Virus record (IMG/VR): IMGVR_UViG_3300022699_000302
Span: 64,001 to 128,000 of that record
Reading direction: 5' to 3' (one strand)
DNA length: 64,000 bases
Source: a virus
The translations under genes and the position numbers were made by a program. The notes under the pieces are model-generated. The model made no database searches, had not been told where the DNA came from, and saw only the letters and a program-made list of their open reading frames with translations. Shown piece after piece: positions 9,437 to 58,942 of the stretch (its first letter is position 1; each line of letters opens with the position of its first letter).

Positions 9437-10035
9437 AATACGTTTATCTTGATGCCGACGGGTTGGTGGTTGCTACGTCGAATGTGCAGCGCGAGATCAC
9501 GTTGCCCAAGTTGGTCGAACTTGGCGTGGTTGAGCGTATTGATGGCGCACCGGATGAGGTTTCCGCTCCGGGCGATTTCGGTTCAACCTCGACGTACACC
9601 AAGGTTAAGGGCGACGGCACCAGTACTGACGACTACGAGAAGTCCGACAACCTTCAACCGATCAAAGAACGTAGGTATCGTGAAATTGACTCACGCACGT
9701 CTCAGTTGATCGCACAGGGGTTCAAGCATCAGGACAAAACATTCAGTCTGTCGGAACAGGCGCAGAACAACATGATCGGGGTTCGCACGGCTATTGCGGA
9801 TCACCGGGCCAGCGGGACACTGCCAGACTTTGAATCAGCGTTCTTTCCGATCACGTTCAACACCTTGAACGACGACGACTCAATGAAGATTATCGACTCC
9901 GACGAATACATGGCGTTCTACGACGACGCGATGAGCACGATTCGGTCACACCTCGATGGAGGCACTGCACTCAAGAAAGACATCCGTGCCGCGACTACCA
10001 AGGCAGAAGTTGACGCTGTGGTAGACAACCGATGA
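9424..10035 (+). CDS. tail fibre assembly-like protein (DUF4376-like)
   Basis: follows the fibre gene; C-terminal LKKDIRAATTKAEVDAV. Confidence 0.55.
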   Translation: MAGMKYVYLDADGLVVATSNVQREITLPKLVELGVVERIDGAPDEVSAPGDFGSTSTYTKVKGDGTSTDDYEKSDNLQPIKERRYREIDSRTSQLIAQGFKHQDKTFSLSEQAQNNMIGVRTAIADHRASGTLPDFESAFFPITFNTLNDDDSMKIIDSDEYMAFYDDAMSTIRSHLDGGTALKKDIRAATTKAEVDAVVDNR

Positions 10036-10931
10036 GGGCTTTAGTGCTTAGCGGTGGCGGTTCCAAAGGATCCTGGCAGGCCGGTGCTATTAAAGCAGTG
10101 GCCGATAGTTGTTGGGGCAAAAAAGGCTTTGATTTCATCTCAGGCACAAGCGTTGGGGCCATTAATGCTGCCGGTCTAGGCATGTTCCGAAAGGATGAGT
10201 TTCGGAGCGCAGCTATCATCCTCGAAGGGATATGGTACGACCGCTTGAAGGTGTGGCGTCTAAAATTTCCCTGGTATCTTTGCGGGTTATGGAGTCCCTC
10301 CATAGGCACGAATAAGAGACTCGAGAAGTTCATCGACAAGAAGCTTAATCTCGAGGACCTTCAGAAGAGTGATGTCGATCTTTGCTTCAGTGCAGTCGAT
10401 ATCGAGAGCGGGGAACTCAAGCGATTCACTAAAGACTCGAATGATATCAAAGCCGCCATTATGGCTAGCGCCAGCTTTCCTGTAGCCTTTCCTCTACAAG
10501 AAGTGGAACGGAGGCTTTACACCGATGGCGGTGTACGAGACATAGCGCCGTTGAAGCCGGCCATCGAGGCAGGGGCCAGTGAGATTATTGTCTTGATGAC
10601 GGAAAACCCGTTTGAGGCAGCTGAGGTAGAGCCCCCCAAGAATGCTGTGTCGATGGCTATGAGGGTGGTTAATCTACTCACCGCTGAAGTTCTGCTCAAC
10701 GATATCGAGAGATGCTACAAGATCAACGAGCAGATCATTCATCACCCCGGCAAGCGAAAGGTTCTAGTTCATACCTATTGGCCGGAAAAACCCCTGGCGG
10801 ACTCTTTGAATTTCAAGACGAAGCTCATGAGAAAGCAGATCGAGCAGGGGTACGATGAGGTCCGAAAGCAGCTCGACGACGTCTCCCCGCTGGATAAACA
10901 AAGACAAGCTAAAAGAAAAGGACTTAGTTGA
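10032..10931 (+). CDS. patatin-like phospholipase
   Basis: LVLSGGGSKG, GTSVG (GxSxG) and DGG motifs. Confidence 0.9.
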   Translation: MRALVLSGGGSKGSWQAGAIKAVADSCWGKKGFDFISGTSVGAINAAGLGMFRKDEFRSAAIILEGIWYDRLKVWRLKFPWYLCGLWSPSIGTNKRLEKFIDKKLNLEDLQKSDVDLCFSAVDIESGELKRFTKDSNDIKAAIMASASFPVAFPLQEVERRLYTDGGVRDIAPLKPAIEAGASEIIVLMTENPFEAAEVEPPKNAVSMAMRVVNLLTAEVLLNDIERCYKINEQIIHHPGKRKVLVHTYWPEKPLADSLNFKTKLMRKQIEQGYDEVRKQLDDVSPLDKQRQAKRKGLS

Positions 10932-11211
10932 CCGGCTTGTACTTGCCGGTCTTCCAGTCCTTTTCTACGTCCTCGATGAAATTCCTGAATGCGTCCATGA
11001 GGAGCATCTCTTCAACATCGCTTAGCTGAAGATCGGCGAAAGCGTCCCAGTACCCCCGCATGCATGAGTTAGCGGTAAGGTAGGTGATGAATCGCGGTTT
11101 CGGCCAGTTGGTGTGCCAGACCGCTACTCGTTCTTCGTGTCTATGGTCGGGTCTCTTGTCTTCGACCCGATAGACATACCAATCGCCGTGGGACCACCTC
11201 AGATACGGCAT
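10924..11211 (-). CDS. hypothetical protein
   Basis: 95 aa ORF with RBS. Confidence 0.65.
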   Translation of the reverse strand: MPYLRWSHGDWYVYRVEDKRPDHRHEERVAVWHTNWPKPRFITYLTANSCMRGYWDAFADLQLSDVEEMLLMDAFRNFIEDVEKDWKTGKYKPVN

Positions 11212-11254
11212 AGACCACCTCTACAATCAGTGTAGATCGGTCTTTGTTTTTAGT

Positions 11255-11638
11255 TCAGATCTTGAATCGCTGCTCCGGCGGTTTGACTTCCTCGAACTCG
11301 TCGATCAGCTCATCGATCTTTCCGATGATGACCCGAATCTCCATGTAGTGCCGGCTTTCCGGGTTGATCTCGTGGCAAAGACTCTCGAGTCTCTGGCGGG
11401 TAAACCGTAGACCTGGGATTCGGGCATGACGTTCTTCTTCGACGATCTCGCGTACACGCTTGTCATCGATAGGCAAGGCAAGATCTTTGACTGACGGTAC
11501 AGGAATTGGTTGTTCCGGCATAGGTAGGGCCTCCGGCTCTTTGTAGGGCTGACGGACATCGTGACCACAGGTCATGCAGCGGAAGGCGGTGTCCGAGTTC
11601 CAGCTTCCGCATTTAGTGCATTGGTAAATCTCAGTCAT
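11255..11638 (-). CDS. zinc-ribbon hypothetical protein
   Basis: CTKC...CMTC at the N-terminus. Confidence 0.7.
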   Translation of the reverse strand: MTEIYQCTKCGSWNSDTAFRCMTCGHDVRQPYKEPEALPMPEQPIPVPSVKDLALPIDDKRVREIVEEERHARIPGLRFTRQRLESLCHEINPESRHYMEIRVIIGKIDELIDEFEEVKPPEQRFKI

Positions 11639-15249: not shown

Positions 15250-15258
15250 TCTTAGGCC
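15250..15258 (-). promoter_or_regulatory. conserved phage promoter-like motif
   Basis: GGCCTAAGA-CTG-TAGA. Confidence 0.7.
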
Positions 15259-15659: not shown

Positions 15660-15890
15660 TTAGTTGACGGGTTTGTCTTTGCCCTGCAGGTAGTCGCGGT
15701 TGACCTTCCAGAACTCCGCAAACTTCTCGGAGTCCCCGATCTTTTTCCCCAGCGACAGCGTCTCGTCCGGGGTCATTTTATTGGCCTTGTCTATCGCGGC
15801 CTCTACTTGATCGGCGGATTCGGGATCACCGTCGAACTCTAGCTCAACAGTGGTTTCCTCCGCAACTACAACTTGAATCTTTATGGGCAT
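15660..15890 (-). CDS. hypothetical protein directly downstream of array 1
   Basis: start MPIKIQ after GAGGA. Confidence 0.65.
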   Translation of the reverse strand: MPIKIQVVVAEETTVELEFDGDPESADQVEAAIDKANKMTPDETLSLGKKIGDSEKFAEFWKVNRDYLQGKDKPVN

Positions 15891-15900
15891 AAGATTTCCT

Positions 15901-16517
15901 CGGTTCACTCGCGGTCGACGTTGCTGTCCGTGTGTACGGCTCACTCTGCGGCAGTGTTACAGTTGTTGACGACGATTCACTTCTACGGCACGGCGTGGCT
16001 CACCTCGTACGGTTCACTCTTTTTGTACGGAACAGTTCTACGTCCCGGTTCACTCCTAATGAAGCAGTTCCAGGTCTAGGCTCAATCCTGTGTAGTGGTA
16101 CAGTCGGTGACGACGTTTCGATCAGCGCTTGCGGTGTAATCCAGAGTTGACGGCTCATTCCGGGTGCTTGGTACATTCGGGCGGGACGATTCATTCAACG
16201 AATCGGTACAATTTCTTTCTGCGATTGCTTTTCCTCTGAGAAACAGTCAAAGCCTACGGCTCATTTCATCTAAACAAAGCTTTCGCCAATGTCGATTCAT
16301 TCTGTTCATGCGTAGCTATCTTTTGATGTGATTCATTCGAGGCAAGCGGTACAGTCTCTTATGACGAGTCATTCGACGCAAACACTACAGTCAAATATGC
16401 CGATTCATTCGTTTGTTTTGGAGCAGTTCCTCCTGCCGATTCGATTTGTTACTCCGGTACTGACGTGTGTTACGTCTCGGTCGCGCGGATCGAAACAGTT
16501 ACCTGCTTCGATTAAAG
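15901..16517 (-). repeat. TIGR-like dual-repeat array 1 (about 17 units, 36-nt period)
   Basis: 18 edge motifs (+ strand CGRYTCAYT) from 15901 to 16509, spacing mostly 36; mid-unit motif CGGTACAGT; 9+9+9+9 layout. Confidence 0.8.
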
Positions 16518-16520
16518 GTG

Positions 16521-16650
16521 ATCAGGGCGACAAGGTGGCGTAGAGATACTAGAGCTCTTCCAGTTGAGCTACGGCCGAAGCCGACGGGACTCGAACCCGC
16601 AACCTCTTCGTTATCAGCGAAATGTAATCCCTACAGGTATTCGCCCTGAT
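16521..16650 (-). ncRNA. Y RNA (YrlA-like) 1
   Basis: 10-bp terminal helix AUCAGGGCGA/UCGCCCUGAU, 3' CCUUGUC; T arm GGUUCGAGUCC, UUCG-closed acceptor-like stem, then D arm UAGCUCA..AGAGC. Confidence 0.85.
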
Positions 16651-16651
16651 T

Positions 16652-16816
16652 TTAAATCTCATCGAATTCAGTGAGTTGGTGCTGGTCACGCTCTTTCGGG
16701 CTCATATTATCCCAGCAGCTCTTACAGACCACCGGGTACCCATGAGAATCCTCAAAGCAGCTTCCGCAGCACGAGCATTGAAGGCCTTCGACGATATCGT
16801 CAGCAATCTCTCCCAT
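16652..16816 (-). CDS. small Cys-rich protein (not in ORF track)
   Basis: 54 aa MGEIADDIVEGLQCSCCGSCF..GYPVVCKSC, translated by hand. Confidence 0.7.
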   Translation of the reverse strand: MGEIADDIVEGLQCSCCGSCFEDSHGYPVVCKSCWDNMSPKERDQHQLTEFDEI

Positions 16817-16975
16817 CACTTCTTCTTTGCGTGAGATAAAAAGAAGCCACCGACAGGTCGCGTCATAAGCCTATCCCCTCTCGTCATCGGCGGATTTCCA
16901 GGGAGACGTGACTACAGGGAGCTTCGTACCCAAGATGGGCTGTCGGTGGTGCCACTCCTCAAGCGGCAAAACAGA

Positions 16976-17113
16976 GAGAGTAACTGGGGGAAGGCTACTA
17001 TTCCCGGGGAAAGGCGGTCGCGACAGGTCAAACCTTTCCGTCTTCTTGTGTGACTTCAACCCTTCGTGCATCACACTCAGACGCCCTCGTTGTTTTGAAC
17101 ACCAGTTACTCTC
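16976..17113 (-). ncRNA. unknown structured RNA D
   Basis: 12-bp perfect terminal helix GAGAGUAACUGG/CCAGUUACUCUC plus internal arms. Confidence 0.6.
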
Positions 17114-17121
17114 AAAAGGCT

Positions 17122-17230
17122 AGCAGCAGGCGCGGGTCGTCCGTCTTTCTAAAGCGCCCCCGAGCGCGGGATCTGCGCCGGCGCCGGGCCGAGGTTTAGG
17201 TGCCTCGGTAGCCACCATGTTCCTGCTGCT
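17122..17230 (-). ncRNA. unknown structured RNA C
   Basis: 9-bp terminal helix AGCAGCAGG/CCUGCUGCU; internal CCGAGG/CCUCGG hairpin. Confidence 0.6.
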
Positions 17231-17243
17231 GTAAGGAAGGTCA

Positions 17244-17371
17244 GGGAGTAGGGTGTATACTGTGCCGTTCGGACTATAATCCTACCCACCTCTCGGCTTC
17301 GACGTGTATTTCAACACGCTAGGCCAGCCACCCATCGGCTATTTGCCTCTAGGCCACACTCGCCTACTCCC
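17244..17371 (-). ncRNA. unknown structured RNA B
   Basis: 9-bp terminal helix GGGAGUAGG/CCUACUCCC; internal hairpins. Confidence 0.6.
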
Positions 17372-17381
17372 ATAAAACCAT

Positions 17382-17494
17382 GCGCGGAGAAACTACTGGC
17401 CGGCAGTGGGTCCAAACCCGAAAGCCTATCCCGACTCAGCAGGGTGTGCCATCGAAGGCAGCAGATTCCTAAAGGTCTGCCACTCTCCCCGCGC
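17382..17494 (-). ncRNA. unknown structured RNA A
   Basis: terminal helix GCGCGG(GG)AGA/UCUCCGCGC plus internal hairpins; begins about 10 nt after the promoter motif. Confidence 0.55.
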
Positions 17495-17509
17495 GAAAAG
17501 TGTCTACTG

Positions 17510-17518
17510 TCTTAGGCC
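17510..17518 (-). promoter_or_regulatory. conserved phage promoter-like motif driving the ncRNA cluster
   Basis: GGCCTAAGA-CAG-TAGA. Confidence 0.7.
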
Positions 17519-17538
17519 GAACTCGGCCGGGAAAATGG

Positions 17539-17682
17539 TGCGGTGACAAGGTGTTGGAGAGATATTTACGCGCTCTATCCACTGAGCTACCCCACCACTT
17601 AGCTATGGTGGTGGGGGTGAGGAATCGAACCTCACGACCTCGTCCTTATGATGGAATGTAATCCCTCACGGCATTCACCGCA
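17539..17682 (-). ncRNA. Y RNA (YrlA-like) 2
   Basis: UGCGGUGA/UCACCGCA helix, 3' CCUUGUC; T arm GAGGUUCGAUUCCUC, 9-bp acceptor-like stem, D arm UAGCUCAGUGGAUAGAGC in permuted order. Confidence 0.85.
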
Positions 17683-17943
17683 TTTTCGTTTCGCGTCTCA
17701 GGCACAATCGGCTGCTACGACTCGTTCTTCATGTGCGCTACAGACGATATAGGCAACTCATTCAGACACTACGAGACCGTCTAGTTTGACGATTCGCTCG
17801 GTTGGTTCGAGACGCTCTAGAGATCCAGCTCGTTCTTCATGCACGTTGTGGTCATTTGAAGTGACTCACTCATTGACTACGGAGCCTGCGTTCAGCACGG
17901 TTCATTTTGCATCGGAGGATACGGTCGTCTGTGACGATTCAAT
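17682..17943 (-). repeat. TIGR-like dual-repeat array 2 (7 units)
   Basis: edge motifs at 17682, 17718, 17754, 17790, 17826, 17862, 17898, 17935 (six 36-nt spacings, one 37). Confidence 0.7.
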
Positions 17944-17949
17944 GTTGGC

Positions 17950-18019
17950 GGACCGACAAGGTTGTGTGGAGTCACGGTTCATTTCCAGTAATGATGTAGA
18001 CCCCTACGGCATTCGGTCC
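17950..18019 (-). ncRNA. short Y RNA 3 (no tRNA-like domain)
   Basis: GGACCGA/UCGGUCC helix; shares GAAUGCCGU..AGGG..UACAU and CCUUGUC with Y RNAs 1 and 2. Confidence 0.75.
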
Positions 18020-18072
18020 ATTGGTTGCGTCGGATGAAACCAAGTTGTCAAAGAAGCCACAAGAGGGCCCGG

Positions 18073-19686
18073 TTATACCAGGCCCTTCTTGATGGCGTCA
18101 ACCCAGTGATTCGTGCCCCCTCTGTCTTCCAGGAAGGTTGAGATGGCGTCGAACACTGAGTCATTGAACCCCCCAACATTCAGAACGTCGGGACGATTCA
18201 CGACCTGTGTGGTCGGGTGGGGCTGAAGGTCGATTAAGACCAACTTGGCATCGGGTCGGTCGGCTCGCTTTTTCCACTCATCCCAGTAATACTGCAGACC
18301 AGTACGATTCTTGGTGTAGTGGCGTGCAGGATCATTGGAGAAGTCCGCCCAGGACTCCATGTCCGAGAGAATGACAACAGCATCGAGATCGAATATCTTG
18401 TTGTCGATCAAGTACTGGATCGCCGAACTACAATCAGTCCCCCCGCCGGAACGTGCCAGCTGATTTACCAGGGTAAAAATGGAGTCACGGTCGGTAACCG
18501 ACGCGAGTTTCGCTGCAGTATCAAATTGGACGACCTTTGCGTCGGGCTGGGAGTGAAGGATGCATGCTGCCATGAGCGCTGCAACCTCACAGCATCGCAC
18601 GTCCCGGGCACCGGCACGCCTCCAGCCTCCCCGGGTGGTGGCCTTACCGACTGCGAGAGCTTGCATCGAGTACGACACGTCCACGCAAACAGCTGCCTTT
18701 CCGAAACGGGGCACGTTATCGATCGAGATCTCGACCGTATCGTGCAAGGCATTTTTGATCTTGGTCGGAATGCCTTCATTGAGGTGGCGGTAGGTCTGGT
18801 AGAGCTGGTACGGGAAGATCCGCTGCTTCTTGATTTGCTCCACATCGGTCAGCTGTTCGACTGCATACTCGACGAATCCCGTATCCTTGAGCACTTCATG
18901 GCGCTCCAGGGTATTGAGGTTCATCCGAAGAGCATGAAGTCCCATCTGGTGCCCCAAGACCTTCCAGTCCCGGGTCGAGAGATCGGGGATCGAAGTCAGG
19001 AGGCGAAACTCGATGCCCTTGGGCTTGCGGTTGCGATACCCCGCCTTCCATTCCTCGAAAACCTTCGCTACTTCGGGGAGCAGCTCCTCGTTGTAGTTGC
19101 GCCCGATCAGGTATGCATACAGGTTTGAGCGGGCTTGATCCGAGGGCTTGGGATGGATCATGTGAATGATGTCAGCGATCGACGGATCGTTACCAACTGA
19201 ATCCCTGAACAGAGCGGCGGGATGACGCTTGTTCAACCAGTGCTCGATCAGCTTCTTCAGCCAGGTGCCGAAGCTTTTTCGACCGAACCGCCCCGAACGA
19301 ATGAATTGCGCGAAGTTGCGGAGCATCCTCCCGTTATCGATCACATGCGGGAATGCCTCGTTGAACTTAACACGGTCGACTCCGGTCTGACTTGCCGCGA
19401 ACGCCATGAGAGCGGCCGGCATATCCTTCATCCACGCTTTCTTGCGCGAGTACACCGCGACATCGATGACGAAGTTCGGGTCGACCTTGCGCGCAGCCTC
19501 CAGGAGGGTCTCGAGCTGCTTCTCGCCGGTGGCGTAGAACGTGTTGTAAAAAGTACCGGTACACGCGTATTGTGCCAAGAGCTCTTCCGGATCGAGCTTC
19601 ATAGCGGCGCCTCCAGCCTCGTTGACCGTATGCTTGACCTCGATCTCGTGGGCCTTGGCTGACTTGAACATTTTCTTGTTCGCCAT
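18073..19686 (-). CDS. rsr: Ro60-related TROVE/vWA RNA-binding protein
   Basis: TROVE region (VNEAGG.., FGRKSFG, ALRMNLNT, RIFPYQ) plus vWA VCVDVSYSM, GGTDC; start MANKK after AGGAG. Confidence 0.9.
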   Translation of the reverse strand: MANKKMFKSAKAHEIEVKHTVNEAGGAAMKLDPEELLAQYACTGTFYNTFYATGEKQLETLLEAARKVDPNFVIDVAVYSRKKAWMKDMPAALMAFAASQTGVDRVKFNEAFPHVIDNGRMLRNFAQFIRSGRFGRKSFGTWLKKLIEHWLNKRHPAALFRDSVGNDPSIADIIHMIHPKPSDQARSNLYAYLIGRNYNEELLPEVAKVFEEWKAGYRNRKPKGIEFRLLTSIPDLSTRDWKVLGHQMGLHALRMNLNTLERHEVLKDTGFVEYAVEQLTDVEQIKKQRIFPYQLYQTYRHLNEGIPTKIKNALHDTVEISIDNVPRFGKAAVCVDVSYSMQALAVGKATTRGGWRRAGARDVRCCEVAALMAACILHSQPDAKVVQFDTAAKLASVTDRDSIFTLVNQLARSGGGTDCSSAIQYLIDNKIFDLDAVVILSDMESWADFSNDPARHYTKNRTGLQYYWDEWKKRADRPDAKLVLIDLQPHPTTQVVNRPDVLNVGGFNDSVFDAISTFLEDRGGTNHWVDAIKKGLV

Positions 19687-19739: not shown

Positions 19740-19761
19740 AGATCACCAACGAAATCTGGGT

Positions 19762-58695: not shown

Positions 58696-58786
58696 TGGCA
58701 CAGCGGGGAGGACTCGAACCTCCAACCTTCCTACTAAGCGGACGGGCCCGCTTTTCAGATGCTCTACGCAATTGAGCTACCGCTGT
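58696..58786 (-). tRNA. tRNA-like RNA with anticodon loop replaced by a hairpin (no readable anticodon)
   Basis: acceptor ACAGCGG/CCGCUGU, GCCA end, D arm GCUC..GAGC, T arm GGAGGUUCGAGUCCUCC; 21-nt anticodon region AAGCGG-GCCCGU-CCGCUU. Confidence 0.75.
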
Positions 58787-58787
58787 G

Positions 58788-58863
58788 TGGTGCAGGGAGA
58801 AGGACTCGAACCTTCATTTCCGAGCTTAAGAGCTCGGGTCCTAACCAATTGGATGATCCCTGC
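58788..58863 (-). tRNA. tRNA, Lys(CUU)-like, with non-canonical anticodon loop
   Basis: GCAGGGA/UCCCUGC, ACCA end; arm CCGAGC-UCUUAA-GCUCGG gives a 6-nt (or 8-nt) loop. Confidence 0.75.
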
Positions 58864-58864
58864 T

Positions 58865-58942
58865 TGGCGGTCCCGGCGGGATTCGAACCCACACCCTCCT
58901 GAGTTTAGAGCCCAGGCGCGCTGCCAGTCGCGCTTCGGGACC
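58865..58942 (-). tRNA. amber suppressor tRNA (anticodon CUA)
   Basis: GGUCCCG/CGGGACC, GCCA end; 6-bp anticodon stem CCUGGG/CUCAGG, loop CU-CUA-AA; canonical D-loop GG and T-loop UUCGAAU. Confidence 0.85.

Follow-up and report, generated by a model that had tools for sequence, protein, structure and literature searches.

A probable dual-repeat TIGR array between two Y RNAs of a phage rsr locus, 21.6 kb from the genome's single nuclease-free Tas gene

[quoted passage not shown] 2025, PMC12045711). Among the described systems, FpTIGR/FpTasA of Flavonifractor plautii (PMC12045711) resembles the one reported here in having a Tas protein without a nuclease, truncated first and last edges, an unstructured precursor and carriage by a tailed phage. 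SpTIGR-TasH of Salicola phage CGphi29 (PDB 9W03 and 21KL; PMC13421893) is likewise phage-borne and has 8-nt spacers that give a 16-bp target, but SpTasH has an N-terminal HNH nuclease and cuts DNA, whereas the protein here has no nuclease domain and is only about 16% identical to it. Precursor processing in dual-repeat systems is done by the Tas protein itself, through a Tyr/His pair of its C-terminal loop (Y289/H296 in SpTasH; PMC13421893), and nuclease-free TasA binds DNA and represses transcription in a guide-dependent manner in reporter assays (preprint 10.64898/2026.09.09.750476).

In bacterial and phage rsr loci, rsr has at least one Y RNA after it (Chen et al. 2014, PMC4201824), and the phage locus described here follows that plan, with Y RNAs after rsr, some of which have a tRNA-like module. 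It differs from the rsr regions of its relatives (contigs L075 and L074, and Myxococcus phage Mx1), where rsr is accompanied by Y RNAs or tRNAs and by no array. It also departs from the FpTIGR and other TasA-type systems (PMC12045711) in that its two arrays lie 21.6–24.7 kb from tas rather than beside it, sit inside the rsr/Y RNA operon and abut Y RNAs, and in that array 2 is followed by no terminator and has repeats ending in CG more often than in CCA. The TIGR-Tas system itself is already known; the unusual points are the remoteness of tas from the arrays and the Y RNA flanks.

Anatomy of the array and its Y RNA flanks

The window, that is, the whole 64,000-nt stretch of DNA that was analysed, comprises bases 64001–128000 of a 194-kb virus record with terminal repeats. 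Its relevant features, in window coordinates, are:

39577–40632 (genome 103577–104632), minus strand: tasA, 351 aa, the sole gene for a Tas (Nop-domain) protein in the 194-kb genome
18073–19686, minus strand: rsr (Ro60 orthologue), 537 aa in the protein collection; the open reading frame list extends its start to a TTG at 19749
18046–18092, minus strand: terminator-like hairpin after rsr, read by eye from sequence and alignment and not flagged by the consensus scan
17950–18019, minus strand: small Y RNA of 70 nt, the Ro-binding stem alone without a tRNA-like module
17682–17949, read on the minus strand: array 2, seven full 36/37-nt units and a truncated eighth (terminal degenerate edge 17691–17682)
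17537–17681, minus strand: YrlA-type Y RNA, tRNA-like, matching RF02553 over the full model length (44.6 bits, E = 1.1e–7; below the gathering score of 69)
17510–17518, minus strand: promoter-like motif GGCCTAAGA, separating the array 2/YrlA block from the ncRNA block downstream
16521–16647, minus strand: YrlA-type Y RNA (RF02553, 56.1 bits, E = 4.9e–11), directly 5' of array 1
15901–16522, minus strand: array 1, whose roughly 18 units share the grammar of array 2

We infer the minus strand for array 2 from the flanking genes, since those of the region run on it, and from the orientation of the motifs and the orthologous loci. The original prediction had listed edge motifs as they read on the plus strand, at 17718, 17754, 17790, 17826, 17862, 17898 and 17935, a degenerate copy at 17682, and a spacing of 36 nt with one exception of 37; every one of these motifs is present, and the spacing held when the edge coordinates were re-read. 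The minus-strand starts of the edges are 17944, 17907, 17871, 17835, 17799, 17763 and 17727, with the degenerate last edge at 17691, giving one spacing of 37 followed by six of 36, in a phase kept over eight edges.

Each unit consists of an edge of 10 nt, spacer A of 8 nt, a loop of 10 nt and spacer B of 8–9 nt. Edge and loop (of the types GAATGAATCG and GACTGTACCG, respectively, in the array units on the minus strand) are related 10-nt boxes placed 18 nt apart, and the 8-nt segments between them are mutually unrelated. The first edge of array 2 lacks its 5' GA and the last its 3' CG. A2, G5 and A6 occur in all seven edges, G10 in six and C9 in five; all seven loops have G1 and C9, and six have G5. 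Positions 4–5 of the edge are UG in four cases and CG in three, and the repeats mostly end in CG; edge bases vary in these same respects in the tas-adjacent array of an orthologous locus (L059). The near-duplicate spacers that had been noticed in array 2 do exist, in the form of a 13-nt stretch on the minus strand before the edges at 17835 and 17727; it is a junction, composed of the last 6 nt of spacer B and the first 7 nt of the next edge.

Array 2 fills the gap between its two Y RNAs, as had been claimed: it begins about 5 nt from the 3' end of the small Y RNA and runs directly into the 5' end of the YrlA-type Y RNA, which starts exactly where the array ends. The consensus scan found no terminator after array 2, the YrlA-type Y RNA coming next instead. 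The tandem units of about 36 nt and the alternating edge and loop repeats with two variable spacers are those of a TIGR array; nothing Tas-like adjoins array 2, however, tas being 21.6 kb away. As RNA, the arrays fold less well than their shuffles (z of +1.25 and +1.52). The stem-loop type of TIGR was ruled out, since RNA folding gave no hairpin per unit.

At gathering thresholds Rfam returned only tRNAs, and the Y RNAs were seen at relaxed thresholds. The small Y RNA has no Rfam match; it folds at –22 kcal/mol (z = –1.9) and has 5' and 3' stem motifs in common with both YrlA copies. Its loop contains an edge-like motif (17984–17975, minus strand), 40 nt upstream of the first edge of array 2, and in the homologue of this RNA in the relative L074 a tRNA-like module stands at the place of that motif. 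Upstream, the rsr product matches Pfam vWA_Ro60 (3e–11) and TROVE (4.7e–6) and has 2430 homologues, its best named relative being the TROVE protein of Myxococcus phage Mx1 (41.5% identity). Array 2 and both its Y RNA flanks lie downstream of rsr. Between the hairpin after rsr and the first Y RNA is a 35-nt linker (18020–18060, minus strand), which contains TTGACA; it is nearly identical in L074 (2975–3010), a relative whose silent sites are saturated, and possible roles for it are as a promoter of the Y RNA/array transcript or as a signal for processing it.

The motif GGCCTAAGA is probably a phage-specific promoter element. It has 15 copies in the window (828–60849), all on the minus strand, against 0.48 expected, and these stand ahead of genes or ncRNA blocks (e.g., 17510–17518, 15250–15258, 39567–39575 and 41028–41036); of two copies near tasA, one stands before its upstream neighbour gene and one after its stop codon. 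Past the copy that follows the array 2/YrlA block, about 650 nt of non-coding sequence (16850–17500, minus strand), matched by no Rfam family, extend to an open reading frame for a Cys-rich protein of 55 aa. Much of this block is kept in the relative L076 (1–440), where a normal-looking tRNA stands at its upstream end. The 55-aa frame (16652–16819, minus strand), with two zinc-ribbon-like Cys pairs, lies between the ncRNA block and the next YrlA and is also kept in L076 (469–633). Elsewhere in the window there are three tandem tRNAs (58699–58942, minus strand), among which ARAGORN reported one with anticodon CTA (labelled Pyl, of the amber-suppressor type) and another whose four-base anticodon loop reads ctta; these hint at stop-codon or frameshift suppression by the phage.

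Kinship with array 1 and a distant tasA gene

Array 1 begins at the 3' end of the YrlA-type Y RNA at 16521–16647 and ends at the ribosome-binding site of a gene starting at 15890; UGUACCA or UGUACCG is the minus-strand reading of several of its loops. A profile of 36 columns was built from 15 of its units and run over the whole window on both strands. Units of array 2 scored 18.6, 16.8, 16.3, 11.9, 10.8 and 8.8, all in phase, with the unit at 17835 below 6; the best score outside both arrays was 10.6, and the three highest scores outside array 1 fell in array 2. The units of array 1 themselves score 14–32 bits with this profile. Summed over its seven-unit chain, array 2 reached +87.3 bits, whereas none of 385,018 other starts in the genome of 194 kb rose above –25.0, and 2000 dinucleotide shuffles of the region gave a mean of –69.5 (sd 10.2) and a maximum of –26.1. 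Array 2 thus stands far above shuffled sequence rather than level with it, the profile singles it out genome-wide, and the grammar of edge, 8 nt, loop and 8 nt is common to both; array 1 and array 2 are therefore elements of one kind, which bears out the earlier claim that they belong to one system. The genome-wide scan found no third array. A lone unit-like match outside the window (genome 154567–154602, minus strand, 21 bits) falls within an open reading frame and was put down to chance.

The Pfam Nop model had no match in the whole 194-kb genome, and the Tas gene was found by an all-against-all comparison of open reading frames between array-bearing viral loci and the genome, which gave one common protein (L011 7849–8844, L059 8931–9887 and genome 103577–104632). 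Its gene, tasA, shares its strand with both arrays, at a distance of 21.6 kb from array 2 and of about 23 kb from array 1, and the family HMM found no second copy in the genome. As a single sequence against PDB, TasA matched TasH (6.8e–6) and the TasR structure 9MTY (8.9e–5); a 30-sequence family profile matched 9MTY residues 117–322 at 5.6e–23, TasH at 8.3e–12 and IS621 at 1e–5. The Pfam match was to Transposase_20, the IS110 C-terminal domain (1.4e–5). The family has more than 2000 cluster representatives, mostly of 320–400 aa. An AlphaFold model of TasA is all-helical (pLDDT 88.8), and with it the first ten Foldseek ranks in PDB were all TasH or TasR at probability 1.00, the best match being SpTasH (E = 3e–6). 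These matches place TasA in the Tas family, whose members join a coiled coil to an RNA-binding domain of Nop type akin to the IS110 C-terminal domain. No nuclease Pfam domain was found in TasA, and it aligns to TasR from residue 117 on, past the RuvC domain of TasR. That is, the phage protein is a nuclease-free Tas of the TasA type, and it is the probable partner of both arrays. In GenBank phages, tblastn with TasA gave no match, nor did blastn with the array locus.

Near its C terminus TasA has a putative counterpart of the Tyr/His pair of SpTasH. H331 is present in 30 of the 30 family members, position 322 is Tyr in 22 and Phe in seven, and the pair Y322–H331 stands seven residues apart in 20 of the 30, so that most of the family shares the spacing of SpTasH in its C-terminal loop (PMC13421893). 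The C-terminal 82 residues alone had no match in PDB. Because direct alignment of the Tyr/His stretch to SpTasH gave no result, Y322/H331 stays a candidate processing dyad.

Constraint and unit turnover among relatives

Fragments of a close relative (L072, L074 and L076) came from one metagenome, SRR17165164, and are 86% identical in TasA (L072), 83% in Rsr (L074) and 76% in the gene after array 1 (L076). Fourfold-degenerate sites were identical to the relative at 33–49% in rsr and tasA, and at 63% of 24 sites in a 76-aa gene. Array 1 is alignable in L076, where its junction with YrlA is kept. Among 11 paired units, spacer A was identical at 8/8 positions in four and all 16 spacer bases in one; spacers of other units were unrelated, and one 32-nt unit and several 5' units of array 1 seen in the window are absent from L076. 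Positions 1, 2, 5, 6, 9 and 10 of the edge were kept in 9–11 of the 11 pairs, against 3–5 for positions 3, 4, 7 and 8. To judge from these alignments, the pattern of array 1 is that of a used guide array with turnover of units. The gain and loss of whole units, together with guides kept perfectly despite saturated silent sites, argues for real, conserved targets.

This evidence of constraint comes from array 1, and array 2 is judged by the positions constrained there. The original prediction took array 2 to be the more diverged and the older of the two. Its profile scores are indeed lower, but the differences fall mostly at the free positions 3, 4, 7 and 8, and the constrained edge positions (1, 2, 5, 6, 9 and 10) are as intact as in array 1. 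Since the lower scores come from positions that are free between relatives, repeat divergence gives no age for array 2, and the label of an older array finds no support.

The same comparison bears on the alternative that array 2 is a decaying, disused TIGR copy, still recognizable but without working guides, which we regard as improbable. It draws on the lower per-unit scores (8.8–18.6 against 14–32 bits, with the unit at 17835 below 6), on the one loop without G5, and on L074, where no array lies between the first two Y RNAs. Set against these are the intactness of array 2 at the positions kept between relatives, the fact that its lower scores fall at positions varying freely in functional arrays, and the 36/37-nt phase held over all eight edges; moreover, boxes kept amid unrelated spacers are not what uniform decay would produce. 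L074 is nearly identical from the rsr stop to the end of the 35-nt linker; its first Y RNA is of the YrlA type (130 nt), and the first two Y RNAs stand 11 nt apart. Because no units lie between those two RNAs, array 2 at 17682–17949 is lineage-specific, either gained here or lost in the L074 lineage.

The same edge recurs in arrays of more distant loci. A tas orthologue is followed directly downstream by an array with a GAATGA-type edge in L011 and its twin L073 (orthologues of 38–46% identity) and in L059, where the array has about 28 units; no YrlA match was found in these contigs. A scan of viral contigs for three phased edge motifs returned 68 loci, mostly coding repeats of Pro/Asp/Glu type, and true arrays with variable spacers occurred only in L011, L031, L035/L042, L057 and L059. 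Those of L031 (about 9585–10130), L057 (about 9645–9900) and L042/L035 (about 150–330) are dual-repeat arrays with the same GARTGARYCG edge, and no Tas homologue was found near them in the 2–12 kb of contig present. The L057 array ends at the start codon of a gene for an SNF2-type helicase, like array 1 in ending at a gene start. In another phage contig, L075, whose Rsr is 46% identical, rsr is followed by a tandem of four Y RNAs (10940–11390), of which two are small and two of YrlA type; no TIGR units were found near rsr either there or in the Mx1 rsr region. One search of viral contigs for Rsr-related loci returned nothing.

Competing readings, proposed action and significance

Array 2 combines its tandem-unit grammar and its kinship with array 1 with a single nuclease-less Tas 21.6 kb away, whose orthologues elsewhere directly adjoin arrays with the same edge motif. 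The best explanation, to which we assign a probability of roughly 0.8 (TasA-guided action included), is that it is a dual-repeat array of a TIGR-Tas system.

A reading in which the repeats instead serve the Ro60/Y RNA machinery, as an unstructured 3' tail or a sponge RNA that Rsr or a Y RNA-tethered partner would bind or take in by threading, is a good deal less probable than that of a disused copy. Ro60 takes single-stranded RNA ends, the array RNA is less structured than its shuffles, both arrays begin within a few nt of a Y RNA 3' end, the far end of array 2 meets the 5' end of another Y RNA, and L076 retains the junction of YrlA with array 1. Nonetheless, the same repeat grammar is found beside tas orthologues in contigs without a YrlA match, and the other Rsr phages (L075 and Mx1) lack such units near rsr. 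Variable spacers between conserved boxes are the behaviour of a guide array and not of a sponge, and we found no literature that names tigRNA together with Y RNA or Ro60. To our knowledge, Y RNA loci with interspersed guide arrays have not been described.

Lower still we place a role of the repeats as DNA, as iterons or centromere-like protein sites for replication, partition or packaging. The direct repeats in one orientation, with an 18-bp half period and about 16 boxes in array 2 (about 36 in array 1), would suit such sites, but the boxes are a Tas-type motif that co-occurs with Tas orthologues elsewhere, the arrays fit exactly into the spaces that separate RNA genes on the transcribed strand, and no replication or partition gene was seen beside them. 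That the 36-nt period is a protein-coding repeat of 12 residues is hardly credible: 36 is divisible by 3 and most same-pattern matches in viral contigs are coding Pro/Asp/Glu repeats, but the 37-nt unit breaks the frame, no minus-strand open reading frame of at least 40 aa spans array 2, the sole overlapping one is on the plus strand (83 aa from a TTG start, 17786–18037, running into the small Y RNA), and the array 2 spacers are unrelated to one another.

With array 2 taken as a TIGR array, its action may be outlined as follows. A minus-strand transcript would take in both the array and its Y RNA flanks, arising either at an element of the conserved linker that precedes the small Y RNA or as read-through out of rsr. 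This precursor would be bound by dimers of TasA, which would cut within the edge repeats by means of the C-terminal Tyr/His pair (candidates Y322 and the invariant H331), presumably releasing seven 36-nt tigRNAs. These would most likely guide the nuclease-free TasA to bind DNA, the 8 + 8-nt spacers of array 2 specifying seven 16-bp sites. Since TasA has no nuclease, it would block rather than cut, hindering transcription or replication of the target in a host or a competing element. We searched the phage's own genome for array 2 target sites with at most one mismatch, in either order of the half-sites, and found none; fetched loci totalling 0.7 Mb likewise had no exact array target site, whether a 1-nt gap was allowed or not.

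We read the embedding of the arrays among Y RNAs as a shared expression unit, in which the flanks most likely give expression and defined precursor ends rather than a separate mechanism. The plant dicistronic tRNA-snoRNA genes cited in PMC12045711 are a suggestive parallel: there a guide of the box C/D type is co-transcribed with a tRNA-shaped RNA, and processing of the tRNA part can define the ends of the guide precursor. Those genes are eukaryotic, carry a single guide and serve RNA methylation, and the analogy to an array and its Y RNAs is purely our own inference. We hold it doubtful, if somewhat less so than disuse of the array, that the juxtaposition is functional, with the guide arrays expressed within one polycistronic Y RNA/tigRNA precursor. 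The Y RNAs would then set the precursor ends, stabilize the precursor or pass it to TasA; being tRNA-like, Y RNAs are possible substrates of RNase P/Z, and they would be Rsr-bound.

TIGR-Tas was described only in 2025. Here a complete phage genome has its one TasA, which is free of nuclease domains, at a great distance from both arrays, which lie within an rsr/Y RNA locus, and surveys confined to the surroundings of tas would miss arrays like these. The Y RNA flanks offer a testable idea of how array precursors are expressed and trimmed. If true, the coupling of Y RNAs and arrays would be the first link of Ro60/Y RNA ribonucleoproteins to an RNA-guided DNA-targeting system.
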